NCBI GenBank assembly: GCA_964612065.1 | Contig: CAZTCD010000007.1 | Location: 5,563 to 69,562 of the forward strand | Source of the DNA: an uncultured Bdellovibrionales bacterium | Lineage (GTDB): Bacteria > Bdellovibrionota > UBA1018 > CAIPTA01 | Direction: 5' to 3' | DNA length: 64,000 bases | Part shown: positions 33,380-54,285 of the stretch, piece after piece | Layout: each line of letters begins with the position of its first letter | How positions within the stretch are numbered: position 1 is the stretch's first letter | Notes under the pieces: generated by a model | What the model saw: only the letters and a program-made list of their open reading frames with translations | Told to the model about the DNA's origin: nothing | The model's database searches: none | Translations under genes and position numbers: made by a program

Positions 33380-33457
<78 letters not shown>

Positions 33458-33673
33458 TTTTTAGAACTAGTCAAAGCCCCGATAGGGCGTAACCACTGAA
33501 AACTAAATCGCAGGATTTCGTTGGGCTGGCGGGGTCGGCGCGTTCTTGAACATCACAGAAAATCACAAGCGATCACACTTTTTGCCGGACTTTGTACGGA
33601 CGGCTTACAGACATGTGACGACTGGGTATGTGCGCGTCTTTCATTGGCGCAGTAGTTGCGATAGCATTTTCTT

Positions 33674-33895
33674 ATGGGCAATTCTGTGAAGCGCGGAAAA
33701 ATTAAGTGGTTTGATGCAAAGAAGGGGTATGGCTTCGCTGAGGATGACCAGAAGACCCTTATCTTTTTTCATTTCACCGCGATTGATAAAGACAAACAGT
33801 CAAAAGACTTCAATTCGGGTGACGATGTTGAGTTTGAAACTGAACGGGATGGCGATGTATTGAGGGCGAAGTCAATTCGTCCGATTGAAATCTAA
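33674..33895 (+). CDS. cold-shock-domain protein (CspA family)
   Basis: GKIKWFDAKKGYGFAEDD...IFFHFTAI matches the RNP1/RNP2-type CSD core (KWFn..KGyGFI ... FvHfs). 73 aa. Confidence 0.8.
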   Translation: MGNSVKRGKIKWFDAKKGYGFAEDDQKTLIFFHFTAIDKDKQSKDFNSGDDVEFETERDGDVLRAKSIRPIEI

Positions 33896-36800
33896 CCCGT
33901 AATTGCCTTCGCCGGTTTTTGAAAAGGAAGCTTTACCCCGTAGAGTTCTTCCACCAAAGAGTCTAGTTCCTGCTGGTTTTCCAGTTTCTCATCTTCCGAA
34001 ATCTCTTTACCTTGGTCCAATTTCTTTTGAACCGATGCCATTAGAATTTCGATCTTCTTGGCTGCTGCTTTGTGTTCCTTGGATTCAGGGATGAGAATCG
34101 GAAGGTTTTCAAGATACTGCTTAGAGCAGGGAAAGTATCCCCCGCGGAAGTTACTGCTAACTTTCCTAATGAAGAAATCCATGAGGCTCGAGCAGAGGAT
34201 GCCACTCAGATAGTCGTAGCTGATGCCAGCGGCTGGATCTATTTCGATTCCATAGCCACCAGTGGTGACATTGACAAAGTATCTGCCTCCGGCGCGGTCA
34301 TAGAAGTTTGTCAGACGGTCAAGCATGTAGGGAACCATGAGCTTTGGATTCTGAAAGCGAACCAAGTTTTGATTCCGCGAGTAACAGTGCCAGTCTTTAC
34401 CCGTCCACTTACCCTTCTCGCGCTTTTCGAGTACTGCCTTATTGAGCTTCAGATAGGCATGTGCCTTTGGAAACTTATCTTGCAACTCATCCTCGGGAAT
34501 CAGTTTGGCTGACCCATCGGCTTGGGCAGCATAGGGAAATATAATGTGATGAGTCGGGCTCTCCAGTTGGTACGGCTTAATATCTGAAGACCCTCGAAGA
34601 ACCGGCTTCAAAATCTCGGCCTCGACCTCAACCAGTTTATCCATCTCTCGTGAGTAAAGTTTCTGGATTCGCTTGCCCTCAGAAACCGCGCCTTCCAGCA
34701 TAAAGACGGTATCGGCACCAGATATTACGCCCTGGTAAATCTTCGGGCAGATACTACCCAGCGTTTTCCCTTTTTTTAGAAGTGCATTGAAGATCTCTTG
34801 CTCGGGACCGACGACGAGGTTCCAGACAGCAGACTCTCGCAATTTCTTTTGCTCGATAAAGTCAATAATCAGCGCGTCTGAAACAAATGGTTGGTCTGTT
34901 TCTAAGCTGATTTGAAGTGAGTTTACTAATTTTTCTTCCAGTTTAATGTCAGAAAATTTCACCTTCGGTGCATTGTCCTTCGAGCAATAAATTAGACAAG
35001 TGTATGTACTCGCTCCTTGAAAAATCTGGATGTCGTTGAAGTACACAATTTCTCGGAGGAAGCCCTCCTTGGAGAGGATATCTCTCGTTTCTTTTCCATA
35101 CTTAGCTTGAAAGAACTTATGCGGGCAAATTAGTCCTAGTTGCCCCTTGGGGTGCAGCAAGGAAAGCGCCTTTTCAATGAACGCCACATAGATGTCCGAT
35201 GAGCCCTCTTTAGCCGACTTGTATTTCTCCTGAAGAAATCTGACGTCGTTAACGTCGTCGCCCATTAAATTTTGAATCTTTACATAGGGCGGATTCATGA
35301 TTACTACGTCAAACCCATTATTTCGTAATTGCTTGGGGAAATTCCGTTCCCAACTGAAAGGGCGGCGTACCGCATAGTCTGGCCCGATCAGTCGTTCGAG
35401 TTCTGGCGTCGAGCCCGACACCAGGCTGTTTCCACACTTAACGTTGCTTTCAAGGCTCGGAAGTAGAGATTTCCGATTTGGTAGACGCTGTTCTCCCTCT
35501 AGAGCCTTAAGATACAAACTCATGATGCAAATGCTTACGGCTTGAGGGTCAATGTCGACGCCGAAGATGTGATTCTGAAGAATGCTCCGCTTCTTTTCAA
35601 TCGAGAGCTTTACTTCACCCGCATCGTCTTTAACTAGGTCAGGAAAAAACTTTCCTTGGGCCACATCTTTTGGATTCTTCAGCAAATAATCGAGGTGATA
35701 CTCCATTAGCTTTCCAAAGGCCGTTATTAAAAATGAACCTGATCCACACGCGGGATCTAAGATGGATAGCCGAGAAACTTCAGAATACTTTTTTCCGTAG
35801 ATGGTCTTACTTAGCGTGTTCTCAACGATATGCGAGACGATGTGGTGTGGGGTGTAGTAGACACCACCAGCCTTTCTCACAAAGGGCTTGTCCTCAAGAA
35901 CCACCTTACCGCTCTTAATGGCAAATTCTTTCCCCAGGTATTGTTCGTAGATTGTGCCCAAGAGTTCGATTGGAATCTGATCGAATCTGTATGGAGCGTT
36001 TGGAAAGTAGAAGTTGGTGATCAATTCGTGAATAAGTTCTTCATCAACGTCGATCTTGCTGAAAAGCTCGCTGGTATGAAACATCATTCCATTGAGATCC
36101 TCGTTGATTTTGTCGAAATGGTCGCGGAGTTTGTCCCAAAGATTGAATCCTTTTGTTTCTTTCCAGTAGGCTGCCATTGAAATAAGCGTCGGCCTAGTAA
36201 GGATCTCTCGATCCTCTGCCACTCTAAGGAAAACCACTCTGTTGAGAAGAAGTTCAACACAGTGCTCGATTTCCGAAACATTCAGACGCTTGTTTCGGTT
36301 CTTTATCTGATTTGCAAGCGTGACCTTCCAATTCATAAGGAACTTTAAGAAGTCCTTATCCACGGCGATCCGATTGTCTCGAGAGGTTTCATTTACCTTC
36401 AGCAATGCTTCAAGCGAGCCCTGCTCAACAGACTTCCTAGAGAACTCCCAAAGGAAGTCAGCATGTTTTTCATACTCATGGTAGTGAATTTCTTTAATCA
36501 AGCCTTTTTGAGGCTTCTTGATTTCGGGCAAAGCGCGGCAATCAAAAATTTTCATCCCCTCGAAATCAGTCAGAATCGCAATCGAAGCATCAGGGGAACT
36601 CCACGCATAGGTCTTGGCCTGGTGCACGTGATAGATGCTGTCGAGCGGTTGGTTGGGGGCCTTTGCCTCTACGAAAAACTTTGTCCGTCCATTGAAACGG
36701 AAGGCGTAATCGGGGCGATCTCGTCCGGGGATGTCTCCGCGTTCGACAATTACTTCCCGGCGGTGGTACGGGAGTTCTCGTTTATTAATAATGTCCCATC

Positions 36801-36948
36801 CGAGTGCCTCGAATAGGGGATCCAGGAAGTCGATCCTGACTTGTGATTCATTGTATTCATTGGAGAGATGGAAGTCCTTATGCTTATCAAATTTGATCGC
36901 CAAGGACTTCAGCTTCTTGCTGAATGATTCAGGTGACTTTCGTGTCAT
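33892..36948 (-). CDS. type IIG restriction-modification enzyme (fused PD-(D/E)xK nuclease + N6-adenine methyltransferase + target-recognition domain; Eco57I-like)
   Basis: N-terminal HsdR_N-like nuclease core RPDYAFRFNGRTKFFVEAKAP, SAM motif I ILDPACGSGSFLITAF, catalytic VVIMNPPYVKIQ (NPPY), and a long C-terminal region consistent with a TaqI-like specificity domain. 1018 aa. Confidence 0.9.
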   Translation of the reverse strand: MTRKSPESFSKKLKSLAIKFDKHKDFHLSNEYNESQVRIDFLDPLFEALGWDIINKRELPYHRREVIVERGDIPGRDRPDYAFRFNGRTKFFVEAKAPNQPLDSIYHVHQAKTYAWSSPDASIAILTDFEGMKIFDCRALPEIKKPQKGLIKEIHYHEYEKHADFLWEFSRKSVEQGSLEALLKVNETSRDNRIAVDKDFLKFLMNWKVTLANQIKNRNKRLNVSEIEHCVELLLNRVVFLRVAEDREILTRPTLISMAAYWKETKGFNLWDKLRDHFDKINEDLNGMMFHTSELFSKIDVDEELIHELITNFYFPNAPYRFDQIPIELLGTIYEQYLGKEFAIKSGKVVLEDKPFVRKAGGVYYTPHHIVSHIVENTLSKTIYGKKYSEVSRLSILDPACGSGSFLITAFGKLMEYHLDYLLKNPKDVAQGKFFPDLVKDDAGEVKLSIEKKRSILQNHIFGVDIDPQAVSICIMSLYLKALEGEQRLPNRKSLLPSLESNVKCGNSLVSGSTPELERLIGPDYAVRRPFSWERNFPKQLRNNGFDVVIMNPPYVKIQNLMGDDVNDVRFLQEKYKSAKEGSSDIYVAFIEKALSLLHPKGQLGLICPHKFFQAKYGKETRDILSKEGFLREIVYFNDIQIFQGASTYTCLIYCSKDNAPKVKFSDIKLEEKLVNSLQISLETDQPFVSDALIIDFIEQKKLRESAVWNLVVGPEQEIFNALLKKGKTLGSICPKIYQGVISGADTVFMLEGAVSEGKRIQKLYSREMDKLVEVEAEILKPVLRGSSDIKPYQLESPTHHIIFPYAAQADGSAKLIPEDELQDKFPKAHAYLKLNKAVLEKREKGKWTGKDWHCYSRNQNLVRFQNPKLMVPYMLDRLTNFYDRAGGRYFVNVTTGGYGIEIDPAAGISYDYLSGILCSSLMDFFIRKVSSNFRGGYFPCSKQYLENLPILIPESKEHKAAAKKIEILMASVQKKLDQGKEISEDEKLENQQELDSLVEELYGVKLPFQKPAKAITG

Positions 36949-37225
36949 AGTTCTTCGCTTCCTGCAAAGATTGAGGGCCAGTATCTATTCTGATGTGCTT
37001 GGGGCGGTATGTCTACTCGGTCGGAAAAACGAGCGGAATAGCAGAAGAAGAGAAACCAAGAGGCGTGTGATTCTGAGCCGGAACCGTGAACCAGTTCCGT
37101 GTACCAAAACCCCCTCAAACTCATTCGTCTCAAAGCTCGAAACTTGGCGTCGTCGTCTCTTCAAATAGGGCGTACTAAAACCAAATCAATTTCGGACGCT
37201 TCGTGGGGCATCTGCGTGTTCGCTG

Positions 37226-37534
37226 CTAACGTCCAGAATTGATCTCTGGCTTAACCGTCTCTTTCCAGGCGGGGCCCTTCACTAGTGCGAAAGGCATTGG
37301 CACGAACTTCGTGGCTTCTTCTGTAACTGACCCAATCGCAGCCGCGGCACTGGATCTGATCTGACTTAAAAGGGCGGCCCTTTCCAATTCTGAGAGCGCA
37401 GCACACTGAGTGAGTTTTGTGTCGCCACATTTTTTATCCGTTAAAGTGGCAGCTATTTTATGAGTGGCAGTCAATACGGCCCGGGCCTCCTGAAGCACCC
37501 ATAATCTCACCCATAGATACCCATAAAATGCCAT
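37226..37534 (-). CDS. questionable small ORF upstream of the R-M gene
   Basis: 102-codon ORF. Its first ~12 codons are built from the TATGGGT repeat array, so the annotated start is doubtful. No motif recognised. Confidence 0.25.
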   Translation of the reverse strand: MAFYGYLWVRLWVLQEARAVLTATHKIAATLTDKKCGDTKLTQCAALSELERAALLSQIRSSAAAAIGSVTEEATKFVPMPFALVKGPAWKETVKPEINSGR

Positions 37535-37575
37535 TTTAAGTGGCTTTATGGGTAATTGCGGGTATATTTATGGGT
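37497..37575. promoter_or_regulatory. array of five (T)ACCCATA(A) 7-9-mers in convergent orientation at the 5' end of fic
   Basis: acccata occurs at 37497, 37509 and 37519. Its complement tatgggt occurs at 37547 and 37569, with extended matches ttatgggta. The array lies between fic and the opposite-strand ORF. Confidence 0.6.
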
Positions 37576-38634
37576 ATGAAGCCTCTTAAACCCAAACAGG
37601 TATCTACCGAGGTTTTGAACCTCATTGCCGAGCTGGAGGGCTTCAATAGCCGCTGGGTTACCACGCAGGCCCTGGCACCCGATCGCCTCGCGGCCCTTCG
37701 CCAAGTGGCTACCATCGAGTCTGTGGGTTCCAGCACGCGCATCGAAGGCGTGAAGCTCACGAACGCCCAGATAGAGGCCCTGCTTCGTGGCGTGAAGACC
37801 TACTCGTTCCGCTCTCGCGACGAGCAGGAAGTGGGCGGCTATGCCGAAGTGATGGAGACGATCTTCGCCTCCTACAAAGAGATTCCTATCACCGAGAACT
37901 TCGTCAAGCAGCTGCACGGGATGCTGCTCAAGTACAGCACGAAGGATGAGCGCCACCGTGGCGACTACAAAAAGTTCCCGAACCATGTCGAGGCATTCGG
38001 CGCTGATGGCAAGAGCCAGGGTGTGATTTTCCATACAGCCGCGCCTGTCGATACTCCCAAGTTCATGACTGACCTTGTGGAGTGGACAAATTCCGAGCTT
38101 GCAAAGAAAGAGCTGCACCCGCTCCTCGTGATTGGAATCTTCGTGGTTATCTTTCTGCAGATACACCCGTTCCAAGACGGAAATGGCCGCCTCGCGCGCG
38201 CGCTCACCACATTGCTTTTACTCAAGCAGGGCTACGCCTACGTACCTTACAGCTCATTGGAGCGTGTCATCGAAGAGAGCAAAGACGCTTACTACCTGGC
38301 TCTTCGTCGTGGACAAGCAGAGCTCGAAGGCGAAAAGCCTGGTGGAATGGAAGACTGGCTCCTCTTTTTCCTACGTTCCATGCAGAAGCAGAAGGCAGCA
38401 ATGGAGAAGAAGCTTGCCGACGAATTGGCTGCCGCGAAGTTGCCACCACTTTCATTACAGATCATTGAACTCATTCGCAGCCGCGGGCCTACGTCCATCT
38501 CGGAAGTGGTTTCCGCTACGGGTGCCAACCGCAACACAGTGAAGGTGCACTTTCGCCGTCTCGTAGATGATGGCCGCCTCGTGGCCGAAGGCGTGGGCCG
38601 GGGCGTGCGCTATAGGATGAAAGTAGGGGCGTAG
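37570..38634 (+). CDS. Fic-family protein (class II, N-terminal inhibitory helix; C-terminal winged-helix)
   Basis: Active site HPFQDGNGRLARAL (HxFx(D/E)GNGRxxR) and inhibitory motif STRIEG ((S/T)xxxE(G/N)) about 60 aa from the N-terminus. C-terminal LQIIELIRSRGPTSISEVVSATGANRNTVKVHFRRLVDDGRL is wHTH-like. The start is ATG 37570 or 37576; track start 37540 is a GTG inside the repeat array. Confidence 0.9.
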   Translation: MGMKPLKPKQVSTEVLNLIAELEGFNSRWVTTQALAPDRLAALRQVATIESVGSSTRIEGVKLTNAQIEALLRGVKTYSFRSRDEQEVGGYAEVMETIFASYKEIPITENFVKQLHGMLLKYSTKDERHRGDYKKFPNHVEAFGADGKSQGVIFHTAAPVDTPKFMTDLVEWTNSELAKKELHPLLVIGIFVVIFLQIHPFQDGNGRLARALTTLLLLKQGYAYVPYSSLERVIEESKDAYYLALRRGQAELEGEKPGGMEDWLLFFLRSMQKQKAAMEKKLADELAAAKLPPLSLQIIELIRSRGPTSISEVVSATGANRNTVKVHFRRLVDDGRLVAEGVGRGVRYRMKVGA

Positions 38635-38818
38635 TTATGCTTTACGAAGTCGGCCTTACCGGAGCGATCCTGCTGTTTGCCGGATTCACGGGCGCAACCG
38701 GCCTCTCGGAGTGAATGCGCTTCCACAGGGCCTTCGCACGGATCGCGGGTGCGGCTTCTGGTTTTCTAGGCGGCCTCGTGGGCAATTAAGGCGGCTTTTA
38801 TTGCTTACGCCGCGGCTT

Positions 38819-39478
38819 TTATTTTCCGTTTGATTCGATTTTCATATCCAGTGCTTGCCTGATGGACTCGTATGTTTTCCAGTGCAGCTTTGATTTATTG
38901 TGTTCGATTTCCCAAATTGCAACCTCGGGAAAGTTCACGTAGATGCGCAGCCGCCTCAGTGCTTCGCTGGCTTTGGGATTCCCGGCCTCTATCTTTTGAA
39001 GCGTAACGGTGGAAACGCCGAAAGCGGCTGAGAATTCTCTTATGGTTAGATGGAGTTCCCGGCGATAACTCGCAATTTCTGCCGCAAATCCTCCGCTATC
39101 AGGTTCTGGTTTTTCGAACACAAACGAGGATGCCCCACGCTTTCCGATGCTAGGCAGAAGAACAATGGGGTCGGTTTCTTTGGGATCAACGCCGCTTTCC
39201 TGGCAGTACTCCACATAGGCCGGATTTTTCCTCGATGGAATGCGATCCTCAAATGTTTGAAATAGCTTTTCAGCCTTGAATTTCTGCTTCGTGAGGGGAA
39301 ATTCAGGCCCGAGGGGAATGGAATTTTTTTTCAGGAGATAGGGCATATTGTATTCGAATTCGTAGCTTGCCTTCTTTCCGTCTACGAGCTTGGTCAGGCG
39401 CCCAACAAATTCTTTGGTTTTTCTTCTTTCCAGGAAGACAAGAACTGAGCTCTCCTTTCCATTGTTGTTTTTAGCCAT
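38819..39478 (-). CDS. HipS-like (HipA N-subdomain) :: XRE-type HTH fusion, putative antitoxin/regulator
   Basis: Residues ~10-125 parallel the E. coli HipA N-terminus as I recall it: VGRLTKLVDG..YEFEY, PLGPEFPLT, TFEDRIPS, LLPSIGKRGASSFVF. The C-terminus LTIREFSAAFGVSTVTLQKIEAGNP is an XRE HTH. The start overlaps the kinase stop by 8 nt. Confidence 0.75.
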   Translation of the reverse strand: MAKNNNGKESSVLVFLERRKTKEFVGRLTKLVDGKKASYEFEYNMPYLLKKNSIPLGPEFPLTKQKFKAEKLFQTFEDRIPSRKNPAYVEYCQESGVDPKETDPIVLLPSIGKRGASSFVFEKPEPDSGGFAAEIASYRRELHLTIREFSAAFGVSTVTLQKIEAGNPKASEALRRLRIYVNFPEVAIWEIEHNKSKLHWKTYESIRQALDMKIESNGK

Positions 39479-40391
39479 TCTCGAGCTCCTCCAGGCGGCT
39501 TTCGACGAGTTGAGCTAGAGCGCGTCTTCTTTTCTCGGAGAGAAACTGAAATCCGTTTATCGTTTGGAAGATAGATGCGCTTTTGGAAATGAATTTTGTC
39601 TTTGTGCTCTCAATCGCGGCTTCAAGGCCGAGTCGCCTGAATTCTTCGATATAGTGCTTTGTTGTAGGCTCTTCACTATCCTTCGTAAGGATCGTTCCTT
39701 TGGGTTGGATGTCCGATCCCAGCATTAATTCTTCGGCGATTCCCAGGTAGGAAGGGTTGTCGTAAAACGGCGAAAGGGTCCGGATTCCGCCTGACTTTGT
39801 AAGATACGCCAGGTTTCTTCCGTGCCTATCATGGTTTCCGATCAGAGAATCAAACAGGCAGATCTCCACGAACCGATGCACCTCTCCCAGCCGGCCAGTT
39901 GAATCGAGAAGGTTTTTTGTGATTGTTTCGCAGTCGAAGCGTGAAACTTCTGGTAGGAATTTGTAGATATGATCGAGTGTGGCGGGCGCGTGTTCGTCTA
40001 GTAAGTTTCTCGTTACAAAGGTGAGCGCCTGGTTTTGAAATCTTATCAGGTGAAATGGTGCAACGGAGATTCCCAATCCCTTCGCTATCTGGTTGGACAA
40101 GAACTCCACGGCTGGAAGCTCGGGATACTCCTGCTGCTGAACTTTTAGAATATAGTTTTGGTTTTCCAGGGAAGCTGAGTACTTGCGAAATGCTCCATGA
40201 AAGAAACTGGAGTTGATTCTGCCGAAGCTGGTTTGGGCATCGCCTTTGGGCTTTTGGGAAACGGCTTTTTCGCTCAAATTCCTGAATTCAGTTTGGGTTG
40301 CCAGATTGAATTCTGCGCAAAAGCAGTTCGGATGCATTCCGTGAAATGCGTCATTTGCGGCAATAGGGGCGAGGCACCTGGTGCAGATCAT
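39471..40391 (-). CDS. HipA-family Ser/Thr kinase, core-only (HipT-like) with an N-terminal Cys/His cluster
   Basis: Catalytic loop LFDSLIGNHDRHGRNLAYL, downstream SPFYDNPS, and GAFRK in the position of the Gly-rich loop. At 306 aa it lacks the HipA N-subdomain. The N-terminus is MICTRCLAPIAANDAFHGMHPNCFC. Confidence 0.85.
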   Translation of the reverse strand: MICTRCLAPIAANDAFHGMHPNCFCAEFNLATQTEFRNLSEKAVSQKPKGDAQTSFGRINSSFFHGAFRKYSASLENQNYILKVQQQEYPELPAVEFLSNQIAKGLGISVAPFHLIRFQNQALTFVTRNLLDEHAPATLDHIYKFLPEVSRFDCETITKNLLDSTGRLGEVHRFVEICLFDSLIGNHDRHGRNLAYLTKSGGIRTLSPFYDNPSYLGIAEELMLGSDIQPKGTILTKDSEEPTTKHYIEEFRRLGLEAAIESTKTKFISKSASIFQTINGFQFLSEKRRRALAQLVESRLEELENG

Positions 40392-40465
40392 GTATTAATA
40401 GTAATACAAATTATTACAGTGTCAATATTAATACATTTATATTTTGTATCAATAGTAATACAAAT
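40391..40465. promoter_or_regulatory. AT-rich promoter/operator region of the hip module with direct and inverted repeats
   Basis: aatagtaatacaaat occurs at 40397..40411 and again at 40451..40465 (15/15 identical). The inverted pair tgtattaata (40391..40400) / tattaataca (40426..40435) is also present. Confidence 0.55.
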
Positions 40466-40931
40466 AATAAATCAATGAAATTAACTACATATGATGCTTT
40501 GGGTTGGGGGTGCTTGGATCGCCTCCATGTAAGGCGAACAAGAAGCTGATGCACCTGCTTTTGGTGCTCCATATACCTCGTCGAGTCTCAGTGGGTACTT
40601 TTCATGCATTTAGAGTGGCGGCGACTTCTCGATAACTAAGGCCCTGACTTCGAAGCTTCTTCATCCGGGAAATATTTGCTTGTTCACCTGTATGGTCTTC
40701 TGTCTGCCATTTCCGCCATTTTTGTCCGTAGCCAAGTTGGGATTTGCTTCTGTAACTCAGATTAGAGCTGCGGAGCGGGGTGCCGCATTTTCAGATACTT
40801 TTCTAGCGTACTACGGGAGGACGGTTTTCTGATTTAATCAAATGATCGCCATCCCATTTAAAAAACGGCGTATTCATGCGGGGCTCGCGCGAAGGATCGA
40901 AGAGGTTCGCGAGCGCTGCTACAATCCCTTT

Positions 40932-41477
40932 TTACTGGCTGATCGGAGTGCTTGTGACTTCCGATGCAAAAACAGAGCATGGAAATGCGGAACTCTCAGA
41001 GTGCTCGTTAAGTTCGACGGATTTGACAGAAATATTGATTTGAAGGGCGGGGGAGGTCTTAGGTCTAAGCTTTTCAGGCAAAGACGACACGTCTTTCCAC
41101 GAACTGGAATTAAGATCGAAAGGAGCAATTTCAACTACGGGTCCGTAGTTAAGATTTGTTTGATTTTTTTCTTCGTCATTGCTCTTTAGCTCCCATCGAT
41201 ACCTATCGGAGCTCTTTATGGAAGGGGTGGCGTAAAACGCACCTTCGCCTGCGTAACTGAAAAATGTTATGGCTTCAGCCTGAATCATTCCATCGCTGCC
41301 AAAATGAAGCCTAGTTAGTTTTTCGTCTTTTCCGGCCTTACACCAAGCTTGCGCTGCTACTGCGGACTGGGGCGATGGAGAAATCGATGCGGCAGGCGTT
41401 TTGTTTTGAGCCGTATCTTTGGCACAAGCCACAAGCAAGGCAGAGGCTACTAAAAGAGAAGGTGTGTATCTGTTCAT
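40932..41477 (-). CDS. putative lipoprotein
   Basis: ATG 41477 gives MNRYTPSLLVASALLVACAKD (lipobox LVAC). The composition is AT-richer, like the island. Confidence 0.55.
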   Translation of the reverse strand: MNRYTPSLLVASALLVACAKDTAQNKTPAASISPSPQSAVAAQAWCKAGKDEKLTRLHFGSDGMIQAEAITFFSYAGEGAFYATPSIKSSDRYRWELKSNDEEKNQTNLNYGPVVEIAPFDLNSSSWKDVSSLPEKLRPKTSPALQINISVKSVELNEHSESSAFPCSVFASEVTSTPISQ

Positions 41478-41527
41478 ATGTATATGCCCGGCGAATTCTT
41501 CTTGAAGGTGCCGGGGGACTTTATCAA

Positions 41528-41548
41528 AATTGACTATATATGTCAATT
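41528..41548. promoter_or_regulatory. palindrome AATTGAC-tatatat-GTCAATT upstream of the lipoprotein gene
   Basis: Perfect 7-bp inverted arms around a TA-rich 7-nt core, ~50 bp upstream of ATG 41477. Confidence 0.4.
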
Positions 41549-41614
41549 ATGTAAGTTCTTATTTTTAGGCAGTTTTTGGCAAATCCTCCATGGGGCTCGG
41601 CCCCCGTTCTCTCC

Positions 41615-42052: not shown

Positions 42053-43342
42053 TTAAGGCTCCACGCGGTTTCTGTCGCGCGGATACATCGTAACTTCTCT
42101 TACATTGCTGATCCCGAGCACCTGAGCAGTGAGGCGTTCCAGCCCGATAGCCAGCCCTCCGTGCGGTGGCATTCCGAGCTCGAACATCCGAAGGTGCCCG
42201 GCGAAGTCTTCGGGCCGCAATCCCCGGCCACGGATCGCCGCTTCGAGTGAGGCGCGCGTGTGCAGTCGCTGGCCACCCGTAGTGATCTCGAGGCCGCGGA
42301 AGAGAAGATCGAAGCTCTGTGCCGCGCCCGCTGCGCCGCGGGCATGGGTGTAGAACGGCCGGGCCGCGAGAGGAAATCCCAGCACGAACACCGCCGGCAC
42401 GCCGCACTCTTTCTGCGCGAGCGCGCAGAGCTGGCGTTCGGCCTCTCCGTCGAGGTCGTCTACTAGATCGGTTCTCCCATGCTCTTTTTTCAGGCGGGCC
42501 AGGCATTCCGAAAATTCCCAGGTGGGAGCTTTCGTCATATCCGGCAGCCGTGAGCCTGATCTTCTCTCGATCGACTCGCCAAACCGCCCGTTCAATCCTT
42601 CGAAAATCTCGGAAAGCAGATCCTGCTCCAGCTTGATCACTTCCTCCGGTCCTTCGATGAATCCCATCTCGAGATCGAGGGAATAGTACTCGGTGAGGTG
42701 CCGGCTCGTGGCGTGAGGTTCGGCCCGGTACACATGCCCGGTTTCGAACACGCGCTCGAATGCCGCCACTCCGTGCTCTTTGTAGAACTGCGGGCTCTGG
42801 GCCAGATAGGCGGTGCGCTCGAAGTATTTCAGCGCAAAGAGGTTTGTTCCGCCTTCTGTGCCGCTCGCCACAAGTTTGGAGGTGATGATCTCCGTAAAGC
42901 GGTTTCGCGTGAGGAAGGAGCGGAATCCCGAAAGGATCGCCGCCTGCACGCGAAAGCTCTCCTCCACCAGCGAGGTGCGGAGGCTCAACGGCCGGTGATC
43001 GAGCACCACGTCTATCCCCACGTCTCCCACTTCCGAAGAGGAGTGAAAGGGGAGATCGTGTGCGGATTCATTCAGCACCCTCGCTTCGAGCAGATCCACC
43101 TCAAAGCCTGTTTTGGAGCGTGGCTCGGCTCTTACCTTGCCGCGCAGGGAGATTACATCGTCGAGCTTGAGGTTGAGGTGAGCCACCCGATCGGGCGAGG
43201 CCACCACCTGCACGGTGCCGCTGCAATCTTTCAGCACGATGAATGCTGTTTTCGCCAGGGCGCGATAACGGTAAACCCAGCCTTCCAGGCGCACTTCACT
43301 GCCAACCATGGATCCCACGCGCTCGATGAACGTGCGTTCCAT
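42053..43342 (-). CDS. aspS: aspartate--tRNA ligase, archaeal/eukaryal type (class IIb)
   Basis: OB-fold N-terminus VRLEGWVYRYRALAKTAFIVLKDCSGTVQVV, motif 2 YRAEPHATSRHLTEYYSLDLEMGFIEG, motif 3 GGLAIGLERL...REVTMYPRDRNRVEP. ATG 43342 is preferred over the GTG at 43438. Confidence 0.9.
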   Translation of the reverse strand: MERTFIERVGSMVGSEVRLEGWVYRYRALAKTAFIVLKDCSGTVQVVASPDRVAHLNLKLDDVISLRGKVRAEPRSKTGFEVDLLEARVLNESAHDLPFHSSSEVGDVGIDVVLDHRPLSLRTSLVEESFRVQAAILSGFRSFLTRNRFTEIITSKLVASGTEGGTNLFALKYFERTAYLAQSPQFYKEHGVAAFERVFETGHVYRAEPHATSRHLTEYYSLDLEMGFIEGPEEVIKLEQDLLSEIFEGLNGRFGESIERRSGSRLPDMTKAPTWEFSECLARLKKEHGRTDLVDDLDGEAERQLCALAQKECGVPAVFVLGFPLAARPFYTHARGAAGAAQSFDLLFRGLEITTGGQRLHTRASLEAAIRGRGLRPEDFAGHLRMFELGMPPHGGLAIGLERLTAQVLGISNVREVTMYPRDRNRVEP

Positions 43343-43873
43343 ACTCCATCCTATTCTGTCTTTGCTTAGCTGGAACCTGAGAGACGGCAGGCGGTGCCAT
43401 CCAGCTTCAAGGGGAATCCCCTGCTCTTGATCTCCCACTTTCGGGTGGTATCCGTTCTCAGCTACTGGGGCCTGCTACAGGAAAGCCTGGAGCTTCCGGT
43501 TCACGTCAACCTCTCAGAGGGGTCTGTCCTCATCGGCGAGTTAAAGCCGATGTTAACAGTACTCCGCTCAAAAGAGAAGCGACCCGCTTGATGGCTGAAA
43601 TCATTGAGATCCTTTGAGCGCGGGCGTGACGGGGGCGGGGTGGCACTTGAGCAAATGGAGGCGAATTTTCCCGCCCTGCTCTGTGGGGGAAATGCATGCA
43701 AGATCGAAGCTAGAAATCCGCGATACGTAGCTGCGGGTCGCATTTTATCGACGGAAAATTGTGGAATGCGTGTGGAAGAATTGTGCATATATTGAAATTG
43801 TTTATAAATATTTGATATGGTGAACAGGATTTTCGGGATTCTTTCCCGAAATCCTGCGGAAAAACGCGGGCCG

Positions 43874-44200: not shown

Positions 44201-44977
44201 ATGAATTCAACTCTTCGCACCCGCATCGCCCCCACGCCGAGTGGCTATCTCCACCTGGGAAACATCGCGAACTTCCTCTTCGTGGAGAAGCTGGCTTTGG
44301 CCGCCGGGGGCCGCCTCATTCTTCGCATTGATGATTGCGATAGCACCCGCACCCGCCCCGAATTCGTGGAGCATATCTTCACCGTTCTCCGCTGGCTGGG
44401 CATCCAATGGCAGGAGGGGCCTTGCGACGCCGCCGATTTCCGGAAAAACTTCTCCCAGATCGCCCGCAAGGAACATTACTTCCTCCAGCTGAAAAACATC
44501 GGCCATCTCACATACGCCTGTGAGTGCAGCAGGAAGTCTCTGGAAAGCGCTCCTTGCCGCTGCCGTGAGAAGAATCTTACCATGCAGAGGGGAGTGCACA
44601 CCATGCGGCTCCGGATTCAGAATCAGGTGCTCGCCGCTGAATTCGGTGATGTGGTTCTATGGCGCAAGGACGATGGGCCCGCCTACCAGTGGGCCAGCGT
44701 GGTGGATGACCTCGAACAGCAGGTGAATCTTATCGTGAGAGGGGAGGATCTGCTCAGCTCCAGCGAGCTCCAGAAGCATATTGCCGCTCTGCTTGCTCCA
44801 GAGGGATTCCGCGCCGTGCGTTTTGTTCACCATCCGTTGCTTCCGGGGGAGGGTGGGCAGAAGCTTTCCAAGAGCCAGCAGGCGCCTTCCGTTACGGAGT
44901 GGATAAAAGGGGGCCGTACGGGTGACGACATCCGAAGGCACCTTGCTCCCGTGCTGGAGGGCTGGGAGATTCCGTGA
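44201..44977 (+). CDS. gluQ: glutamyl-Q tRNA(Asp) synthetase-like protein (truncated GluRS paralogue)
   Basis: RIAPTPSGYLHLGN (HIGH-type), RIDDCDSTR, the Cys cluster CECSRKSLESAPCRC, and KLSKSQ (KMSKS-type). At 258 aa it has no anticodon-binding domain. Confidence 0.8.
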   Translation: MNSTLRTRIAPTPSGYLHLGNIANFLFVEKLALAAGGRLILRIDDCDSTRTRPEFVEHIFTVLRWLGIQWQEGPCDAADFRKNFSQIARKEHYFLQLKNIGHLTYACECSRKSLESAPCRCREKNLTMQRGVHTMRLRIQNQVLAAEFGDVVLWRKDDGPAYQWASVVDDLEQQVNLIVRGEDLLSSSELQKHIAALLAPEGFRAVRFVHHPLLPGEGGQKLSKSQQAPSVTEWIKGGRTGDDIRRHLAPVLEGWEIP

Positions 44978-54150: not shown

Positions 54151-54154
54151 GGAA

Positions 54155-54285
54155 CCTAGTCGCTGAATTCCGCTAAGGAAGCGGGGGACCCATTTTTTGG
54201 GGCGAATCGCTCGAAAGAGCGTAGGGCTAAACTCTTCGGCCCGAGTCCGACAGCTAACCTCGTAAGCGTCGAAGAGGAGATCTTT
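54155..54285 (+). promoter_or_regulatory. c-di-AMP riboswitch (ydaO/kimA class)
   Basis: The conserved blocks appear in order: GTCGCTGAATTC..., GCGGGGGACCCA, GGGGCGAATC, GGCCCGAGTCCGACAGCTAACCTCGTAAGCGTCGAAGAGGAG. This is near-identical to the conserved core of the B. subtilis ydaO leader as I remember it. It lies directly upstream of a KimA homologue. Confidence 0.85.

Follow-up and report, generated by a model that had tools for sequence, protein, structure and literature searches.

The 64,000-nt window analysed here, a single stretch of contig CAZTCD010000007.1 from an uncultured Bdellovibrionales bacterium, contains a two-gene module of the Hip family. We consider it probable that this is an autoregulated module resembling type II toxin-antitoxin (TA) systems, in which a HipA-family kinase is the toxin, a HipS-like domain neutralises it and an HTH (helix-turn-helix) domain fused to the latter binds the operator as a repressor, with translational coupling setting the stoichiometry of the two products. 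The module itself is real and far beyond chance, since the same gene order and overlap recur in dozens of independent genomes. All coordinates are window positions, and the data on the family come from genomes and metagenomes outside the window.

Both genes lie on the minus strand with the positions and sizes given in a preliminary description of this DNA, and the kinase gene comes first:
39471..40391, minus strand: gene 1, HipA-family core Ser/Thr kinase without N-subdomain 1, putative toxin, 306 aa (open reading frame (ORF), Pfam, AlphaFold2)
38819..39478, minus strand: gene 2, HipS-like::HTH fusion, putative antitoxin and autorepressor, 219 aa (ORF, Pfam, AlphaFold2)
39471..39478, minus strand: 8-nt gene overlap ATGGCTAA, with the gene-2 start within the gene-1 end (direct sequence reading)
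39486..39492, minus strand: Shine-Dalgarno-like GGAGGAG, 7 nt 5' of the gene-2 ATG, in the last kinase codons (sequence reading)

The junction reads gagaATGGCTAAaaa, with the gene-2 ATG at 39478-39476 and the kinase stop TAA at 39473-39471. The gene-2 ATG therefore lies 8 nt inside the kinase gene, and the overlap described earlier is borne out by the sequence. GGAGGAG presumably acts as the Shine-Dalgarno sequence of gene 2.

The 306-aa protein matches Pfam HipA_C over residues 66–218 (1.6e-18, 67.6 bits; cut-off 30.5) and nothing else of note. There is no Couple_hipA match within it, which together with its length agrees with the earlier claim of a HipA catalytic core that lacks the N-subdomain. 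The closest solved structure is HipT of Legionella pneumophila, HipT(Lp) (8ezr_B), with an E-value of 6e-11 for the single sequence and 6e-19 for the family profile, which aligns the kinase to HipT(Lp) residues 43–308. Next come CtkA of Helicobacter pylori, HipT of Escherichia coli, HipT(Ec), and HipA, the last with a family-profile E-value of 5e-5. The AlphaFold2 model (predicted local distance difference test score (pLDDT) 89.6, predicted template modelling score 0.89) has a fold that matches the same four proteins.

The kinase motifs named in the preliminary description, LFDSLIGNHDRHGRNLAYL, SPFYDNPS and HGAFRK, are all found. The functional regions of the kinase, with residue conservation read from 34 homologues, are as follows:
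40179..40214, minus strand: Gly-rich (ATP-binding) loop N60-SSFFHGAFRK-Y71, in which F63, G66 and K70 are invariant and S62 nearly so
39813..39839, minus strand: catalytic loop G185-NHDRHGR-N193, aligned to the HipT/HipA catalytic motif
39750..39770, minus strand: Mg-binding motif P208-FYDNP-S214, aligned to HipT/HipA, with D211 corresponding to HipA D332
40308..40391, minus strand: N-terminal mini-domain of residues 1–28, C3-x2-C6 ... H20-x2-C23 (34 homologues, AlphaFold2)

G66, K70, K83 (in YILKV), D188, H190, N193 and D211 are invariant in the 34 homologues. Within the catalytic loop G185, N186 and D188-N193 are invariant family-wide and H187 varies (H/N); in the alignment D188, H190 and N193 correspond to HipA D309, H311 and N314. 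The Mg-binding motif has P208, Y210, D211, N212 and P213 as invariant residues. Because the catalytic residues do not vary among the homologues, an active kinase is expected. In the N-terminal region C3, C6, G18 and C23 are invariant and H20 is nearly so, and residues 1–40 are modelled at pLDDT 95–97. This suggests a small zinc-knuckle-like mini-domain, which may bind metal.

The partner protein consists of two domains, and a loop in the first is conserved:
39104..39451, minus strand: HipS-like domain, residues 10–125 (Foldseek, profiles, PADLOC PDC-M03B 1.2e-12)
38900..39097, minus strand: XRE-type HTH, residues 128–193, followed by a C-terminal helix to residue 218 (Pfam HTH_3, Foldseek)
39215..39241, minus strand: conserved loop I80-PSRKNPA-Y88, aligned where HipS has its 'PEGW' plug (alignment to Haemophilus influenzae HipS and HipA)

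Pfam assigns residues 23–116 to Couple_hipA (1.7e-7) and residues 135–168 to HTH_3 (3.4e-5), so that HipA_C in the kinase and both partner profiles all score above their curated cut-offs; parallel NCBIfam matches support both partner domains. HMMER aligns residues 23–116 to E. coli HipA 11–98 and returns the same blocks that had been matched by eye to the HipA N-terminus. The HipS-like domain also gives profile matches to H. influenzae HipS (5.5e-5), HipA (7e-4) and E. coli HipS, HipS(Ec) (2e-3). In an AlphaFold2 model built from a 31-sequence alignment (pLDDT 87.9) the protein folds into two domains that meet near residues 123–128. Foldseek places the N-terminal half closest to L. pneumophila HipS, HipS(Lp) (7vkb_B/8ezr_A; TM-score 0.81–0.82 on the target, root-mean-square deviation 2.5 Å), and then to the HipA N-terminus. 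The region of residues ∼10–125, on which the earlier description depended, thus has a HipA_N-type match both in the Couple_hipA profile and in the HipS(Lp) fold. For the C-terminal half Foldseek returns the XRE-family repressors ClgR, restriction-modification (R-M) controller proteins, HigA2 and HipB(Lp), which together with HTH_3 supports the XRE-type HTH that had been proposed there. Profiles and predicted structure likewise confirm the order of kinase first and then the S and B parts in one fused protein. In the loop P81, N85, P86 and A87 are invariant, I80, S82 and Y88 are nearly so and positions 83–84 are variable; from its aligned position the loop may have a plug function.

Three related palindromes of 17–18 bp, with starts spaced 27 bp apart, are found 5' of the kinase gene, together with a predicted promoter:
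40391..40408, minus strand: operator-like palindrome O1 TGTATTActatTAATACA, which spans the -10 box and has the A of the kinase ATG as its last base
40419..40435, minus strand: degenerate operator-like O2 TGTATTAATATTGACAC, an inverted-repeat pair that overlaps the -35 box
40445..40462, minus strand: operator-like palindrome O3 TGTATTActatTGATACA, which also belongs to a direct-repeat family
40398..40425, minus strand: sigma-70-like promoter TTGACA-16-TACTAT (consensus scan, 10/12 matches)

The direct-repeat family at O3 has two 24-nt copies 54 nt apart. The promoter scan of the region gave 3 promoter-like sites compared with 2.5 expected from shuffled sequences, and as this count is no higher than for shuffled sequence the predicted promoter carries little weight alone. 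Its -10 box ends 6 nt 5' of the kinase ATG, which no Shine-Dalgarno sequence precedes, and the kinase mRNA may therefore be leaderless, whereas the GGAGGAG of gene 2 is strong. Several relatives have a kinase start like this one (for example L001, L010, L014 and L015), and the chlamydial copies have a clear Shine-Dalgarno sequence. When palindromes with 8-nt arms and at most 1 mismatch were counted in the 130 nt upstream of the kinase, 63% of the loci had at least two, compared with 12–13% in shuffled, downstream or intragenic controls. The palindrome sequence differs among lineages, for example TTGACGCAATATTGCGTCAA or TGTGATATACTTATAACA, which is what lineage-specific pairs of operator and repressor look like.

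The partner falls into 76 homologue clusters, full-length save for a few fragments, mostly ∼205–230 aa long and with both halves conserved. The kinase falls into 761 clusters at 90% identity, of which the best 120 are all ∼300 aa except for a few truncated ones. Searched exhaustively with the family profile, 1.84 billion representatives yielded 122 partner matches at E ≤ 1e-30 (50% identity representatives), and a scan with one genome per species found the partner encoded in at least 154 genomes. The source labels for the family proteins are only 'HipA domain-containing' or 'hypothetical'. The taxonomic and synteny tallies of loci ascertained through the partner cover the 80 loci that were kept, which by record title are distributed as follows:
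Chlamydiota: 31
Bdellovibrionota / Oligoflexia: 11
Gammaproteobacteria (Coxiellaceae, Berkiella, Francisellaceae, Legionella nautarum ATCC 49506): 10
Verrucomicrobiota: 8
Alphaproteobacteria (Holosporales, Paracaedibacteraceae): 5
Omnitrophota: 3
Planctomycetia: 1
Unassigned: 11

A kinase homologue lies directly upstream of the partner on the same strand in about 72 of these 80 loci. All 65 intact modules have the order kinase then HipS::HTH, and in all 65 the genes overlap, by 4–32 nt. When loci were instead ascertained through the kinase, a full HipS::HTH gene was found downstream in all 63 metagenome loci that have at least 600 nt of downstream sequence. The sole cultured, named strain among the 80 loci is L. 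nautarum ATCC 49506 (L041:3264-4746, NZ_LNYO01000003.1), whose module is intact with a 301-aa kinase, a 218-aa partner, a 17-nt overlap and repeated upstream palindromes.

About 10 partner-ascertained loci have an intact partner ORF next to a kinase that is decayed or missing. The kinase has an N-terminal truncation in L008, survives merely as a C-terminal stub in both L042 and L072, carries an internal deletion in L074 and L055/L056 or a frameshift in L043 and L077, and is absent from L044 and L054. The converse, a kinase without its partner, was seen in none of the 63 kinase-ascertained loci. Such an asymmetry would be expected of a toxin-antitoxin pair.

In both E. coli and Legionella, experiments have shown that HipS acts as antitoxin to HipT, and HipB is the repressor (PMC10627512, PMC10653801). 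For the present family the domain assignments, invariant catalytic residues, conserved synteny and overlap, palindrome enrichment and decay asymmetry are observed, and toxicity, neutralisation by the HipS-like domain, DNA binding, target and trigger are inferred. Gene 1, a core kinase with a small Cys/His mini-domain, would arrest growth like HipA and HipT by phosphorylating an essential translation factor, with an aminoacyl-tRNA synthetase as the default guess. Gene 2 would be translated in coupling with gene 1 to give a single polypeptide with two jobs. Its HipS-like N-domain would dock at the position of HipA N-subdomain 1 and keep the kinase inactive, and its XRE-type HTH C-domain, presumably dimeric, would bind the three regularly spaced palindromes, which cover both promoter boxes (-35 and -10) as well as the kinase start codon, and so repress the operon. 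The kinase would become free once the partner is lost or displaced.

The module lies in a region of low GC content (0.44–0.55 across ∼33.5–41.5 kb, compared with ∼0.58–0.64 in the flanks) that contains the following further features:
33381..33457, plus strand: tRNA-His, where the low-GC island (33381-41550) begins (ARAGORN, Rfam)
33892..36948, minus strand: type IIG R-M enzyme (PADLOC REase_MTase_IIG 1.8e-210, full length; Pfam Eco57I, N6_Mtase, TaqI_C)
37540..38634, plus strand: SoFic-like Fic protein with a winged HTH, convergent with gene 2 (PADLOC SoFic 1.4e-45, over model positions 24–346 of 361; Pfam Fic)
40932-41546: unannotated 204-aa ORF with a lipoprotein-like N-terminus, in the island

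The module would be a mobile cassette, and its surroundings here are an island linked to tRNA-His that also holds two defence systems. No att-type duplication of the tRNA-His 3' end was found; an integrase gene was not searched for. Outside the island are housekeeping genes, at one end for signal peptidase and a pseudouridine synthase, at the other for an aspartyl-tRNA synthetase and a GluQRS-like protein. The last two (42053-43438, and 258 aa at 44201-44977, tRNA-synt_1c) lie just past the island at host-like GC, and their closeness to a kinase whose relatives target aminoacyl-tRNA synthetases is probably a coincidence. Elsewhere in the window Rfam gave a c-di-AMP riboswitch of the ydaO/yuaA type (54151-54283, plus strand, 106 bits) and otherwise only tRNA.

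Some relatives of the partner are much longer. In about 42 of the 122 partner representatives HipS::HTH forms the N-terminus of a protein of 330–1707 aa, with 100–1500 extra residues (P0248, P0225, P0220, P0234 and others). With PADLOC, 12 of 44 long proteins tested match PD-Lambda-4_A (best 2.8e-67) and two more match PDC-S39. The PD-Lambda-4_A region starts at about residue 215, after the HTH. Across the proteins it spans positions 3 to 1273 of the 1283-position model, and individual proteins reach either end. PD-lambda-4 is the STAND NTPase Avs8, which according to a preprint (bioRxiv 10.64898/2026.01.04.697583) senses the major capsid proteins of phages; the words HipA and HipS do not occur in that preprint. 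Pfam is almost empty on the extensions, with two DUF4209 matches and one ankyrin match, and in about 30 long variants the extension has no strong PADLOC match and essentially no Pfam annotation. A Bdellovibrionales HipS::HTH has DUF4209 at its C-terminus (L037:5992-7473, 1.3e-12), and a further protein among the 44 long variants carries the domain too.

The long forms retain the partner motif FxDRIPSxxNPAYxEYC. The gene upstream of the Avs8-like fusions was examined in two variants, L162:3064-9049 (1682 aa) and L163:3066-6892 (963 aa), each of which is preceded by an overlapping gene for a kinase of ∼316 aa. These kinases are 37–40% identical to the window kinase over the full length and begin with the same CxxC...H..C pattern. 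In L162 the adjoining gene (L162:9043-13049) encodes a 1518-aa protein with helicase (AAA_11/AAA_12), nSTAND3, DUF559 and MTES_1575 matches and a KilA-N gene lies upstream, a setting that resembles a defence or mobile-element region.

The biological role of the module is likely either abortive-infection defence or stabilisation of the island that carries it. The preliminary description had placed it in a defence island. This holds in the window, with its type IIG R-M enzyme, SoFic-like protein, tRNA-His and low GC, and is weak across the immediate neighbours of the family. The 112 ORFs that flank ∼60 modules gave only a handful of strong PADLOC matches (PDC-S01 and mad3 three each, mad8 two, and GajB, DRT, SoFic and RtcR-like one each), and the idea that the family is always found in defence islands was rejected. 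The fusion to Avs8/PD-lambda-4 in relatives is a stronger link to defence than the neighbourhood. On account of the neighbours in the window, these fusions and the precedent of HipAD, we regard phage defence by the short form as quite possible, if somewhat short of probable.

A number of observations weigh against an autoregulated TA-like module or against its defence role. The first concern the kinase. In the profile alignment with HipT(Lp), F63-F64-H65-G66 occupy the positions of the HipT motif S-psi-(S/Q)-G, and the canonical autophosphorylation position, three residues before the loop Gly, is the invariant Phe63. A Ser or Thr at the Gly-rich-loop autophosphorylation position (S-psi-S/T/Q-G) is thus absent from the window kinase, which has conserved serines two residues (S61) and one residue (S62, nearly invariant) before Phe63, at -5 and -4 relative to Gly66. 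With Phe63 at the autophosphorylation position, regulation must differ from that of HipA and HipT. Nor can the target be carried over, since HipT(Lp), the closest solved relative, targets neither TrpS nor GltX (PMC10653801). On the side of the partner, HipS(Ec) acts through Trp65, which is wedged beside the ejected Gly-rich loop (PMC10627512). This plug is unconserved here: the aligned positions 83–84 vary and are followed by NPA and Y88, so that the details of inhibition, if the domain inhibits, must differ. Nor is a HipS-like fold inhibitory in itself, as the homologous N-subdomain 1 belongs to the active full-length HipA toxin. The decay asymmetry comes from metagenome-assembled genomes, in which frameshifts may be assembly errors, and from two sets of loci that were ascertained differently. 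Finally, the immediate neighbours of the family are heterogeneous and mostly unrelated to defence. No third gene is conserved among the 112 flanking ORFs, with no Pfam family occurring more than 4 times. On PLSDB plasmids tblastn found no match to the partner and only distant HipA relatives of the kinase (≤29% identity), GenBank phages gave no match to the partner, and IMG/VR viral contigs gave none to the kinase profile. With no conserved third gene, varied neighbours and no close plasmid or phage relatives, the module behaves as an autonomous two-gene cassette.

Such a cassette could also be selfish, with post-segregational killing serving to retain the tRNA-His island or other mobile DNA and no part in phage defence. 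Its position in a low-GC island with a tRNA-His at the edge would suit this, as would the variable and mostly non-defence neighbours among the 112 flanking ORFs. Many hosts are obligate intracellular bacteria (Chlamydiota, Holosporales), which generally meet few phages. Hip modules that stabilise genomic islands are also cited in PMC10653801. Against pure addiction stand the defence systems that adjoin the module in the window, the fusion of 12 of the 44 long variants tested to the capsid sensor Avs8/PD-lambda-4, the lack of relatives on PLSDB plasmids, and the listing of the related hipIN/PDC-M03 pair as a PADLOC defence candidate. Taken together we find addiction without defence rather unlikely, if less so than the two explanations that follow.

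The main rival to a TA-like module at the level of the proteins is that kinase and partner form a split holoenzyme. The HipS-like::HTH protein would then be a required positive subunit that completes the kinase, in the way N-subdomain 1 completes HipA, and tethers it to DNA, comparable to HipH/YjjJ with its built-in HTH, and the pair would be a regulated signalling kinase without any antitoxin. The homology of the HipS-like fold to part of active HipA and the unconserved inhibitory Trp of HipS(Ec) both speak for it, and strict co-occurrence with translational coupling would fit an obligate heterodimer equally well. Both stand-alone HipS proteins that have been studied experimentally are antitoxins, however. 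The kinase has decayed beside an intact partner in ∼10 loci and the reverse is found in 0 of 63, which fits the loss of a toxin better, and a patchy, island-borne distribution with lineage-specific operators is typical of TA cassettes. The holoenzyme is thus disfavoured by the decay asymmetry and the HipS precedents, and we think it improbable. It is less likely still, to the point of being very improbable, that the kinase is exported, as has been proposed for H. pylori CtkA and once for Legionella Lpg2370, to phosphorylate proteins of a eukaryotic host with the partner as its chaperone or regulator: the concentration of the family in amoeba-associated or intracellular lineages (31 of 80 loci in Chlamydiota; Legionellales, Francisellaceae, Holosporales, Paracaedibacteraceae), CtkA and HipT(Lp)/Lpg2370 among the best structural matches and one plasmid match annotated 'lpg2370 family Dot/Icm T4SS effector' point that way. 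Members are found in Bdellovibrionota, Omnitrophota, Verrucomicrobiota and Planctomycetia as well, however, and a predicted DNA-binding partner whose own promoter carries operator-like sites suggests that the pair acts in the cytoplasm. Translocation of HipT(Lp) was not above the negative control (Lin et al.), and export is also hard to square with fusion to a STAND sensor of bacterial anti-phage immunity.

Within the TA-like reading, the long variants allow a broader and more tentative proposal, to which we give somewhat less credence than to phage defence by the short form. HipS::HTH may serve as a portable 'kinase leash': an adaptor, antitoxin and repressor in one, by which a HipT-like kinase toxin is coupled to whatever sits C-terminally. 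In the short form, as in the window, nothing would be attached, and the trigger would be loss of the partner, for example through phage-induced shut-off of host expression. In the long forms a complete Avs8/PD-lambda-4 STAND NTPase or another large region would be attached, and the kinase would be released or activated once a phage protein is sensed. If this is true, the family would be an eleventh, unnamed Hip organisation, found mainly in intracellular and predatory bacteria, and the first case of a TA antitoxin domain used as output adaptor of an NLR-like bacterial immune receptor. With the Avs8/PD-lambda-4 fusion it can be tested whether phage sensing leads to a kinase that targets translation. 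Environmental Chlamydiota together with Legionellales and Bdellovibrionota account for many of the hosts, groups in which TA and defence biology is little explored, and the copy in L. nautarum ATCC 49506 provides an experimental handle in a cultured strain.

Gerdes et al. (2021; PMC8262856) described ten Hip organisations. Their clade XI includes short core kinases followed by partner genes downstream: in hipIN the partner is HipS-like + HIRAN, in hipMP it resembles a resolvase, and in hipJS, with two examples, it is HipS only and explicitly not DNA-binding. The reversed gene order with a HipS-type antitoxin was therefore already known from hipIN and hipJS, as the caution on novelty in the preliminary description had anticipated. 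HipS::HTH is absent from the ten organisations of that survey and is described in no other paper that we found, although coverage of subscription journals was thin and such absence is not proof. The cassette would extend the 2021 catalogue with a form that is not rare but widespread in under-studied lineages.

The best library matches of both window proteins are to the PADLOC pair PDC-M03, with PDC-M03A at 2.9e-16 for the kinase and PDC-M03B at 1.2e-12 for the HipS half. They cover only residues 74–218 of 306 in the kinase and only positions 5–124 of 245 in the PDC-M03B model, and as the matches are partial the window pair is a relative of PDC-M03 and not a member. Judging from the model lengths, and from a report that counts clusters of HipA + HIRAN among the defence genes predicted by PADLOC (PMC11706625), PDC-M03 is probably hipIN. 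If so, the family would be a relative of hipIN in which an HTH replaces HIRAN. The two share a short core kinase (∼280–320 aa) without N-subdomain 1 and a kinase gene that comes first. They differ in the C-terminal domain of the partner, which is HIRAN in HipN and an XRE-type HTH in the window, where no HIRAN match was found at E ≤ 1. The HTH and the promoter palindromes would imply sequence-specific autoregulation, in contrast to binding of DNA ends. As in hipJS the kinase comes first and a HipS-type putative antitoxin lies downstream, but the window partner has a fused, conserved HTH, whereas going by its description the hipJS partner is HipS only.

The likeness to HipBST of E. coli O127 and L. 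pneumophila noted in the preliminary description stands as far as the parts are concerned: a core kinase, a HipS-like domain and an XRE-type HTH are present in both, and among solved structures HipT(Lp) and HipS(Lp) come nearest. The nearest relatives, though, are hipIN/PDC-M03, with a single-sequence E-value of 2.9e-16 for the kinase against PDC-M03A compared with 6e-11 against HipT(Lp). HipBST has three genes in the order B-S-T, while here there are two, with T first and then S::B in one polypeptide. HipS is a separate protein of ∼100 aa in HipBST, and here the HipS fold makes up residues 10–125 of a 219-aa fusion. The Gly-rich loop is S-psi-S-G in HipT and SSFFHG in the window kinase, the Trp65 plug is not conserved in the window family, and the window kinase adds the Cys/His mini-domain. 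The cassette shows that the lid of HipA, once split off, can be re-fused to the repressor rather than to the kinase, and it offers a natural experiment on combining HipS-type inhibition with HipB-type autoregulation.

Canonical hipBA shares the HipA-family core and the control by an HTH protein, but HipA contains N-subdomain 1 and HipB is encoded upstream. In HipH/YjjJ, which is monocistronic, the same core is present and the HTH is fused to the kinase itself. Among the relatives only longer ones carry the region that matches Avs8/PD-lambda-4, and the window partner ends after the HTH at 219 aa, without NTPase or sensor. HipAD/DS-6 is a validated defence system (DefensePredictor) in which defence is kinase-dependent (PMC13092281). 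Like the window module it pairs a HipA-family kinase with a partner other than HipB, for which binding to the kinase and to DNA is predicted; its partner, however, has DUF3037 and DUF1829 in place of the HipS-like domain and XRE-type HTH found here.

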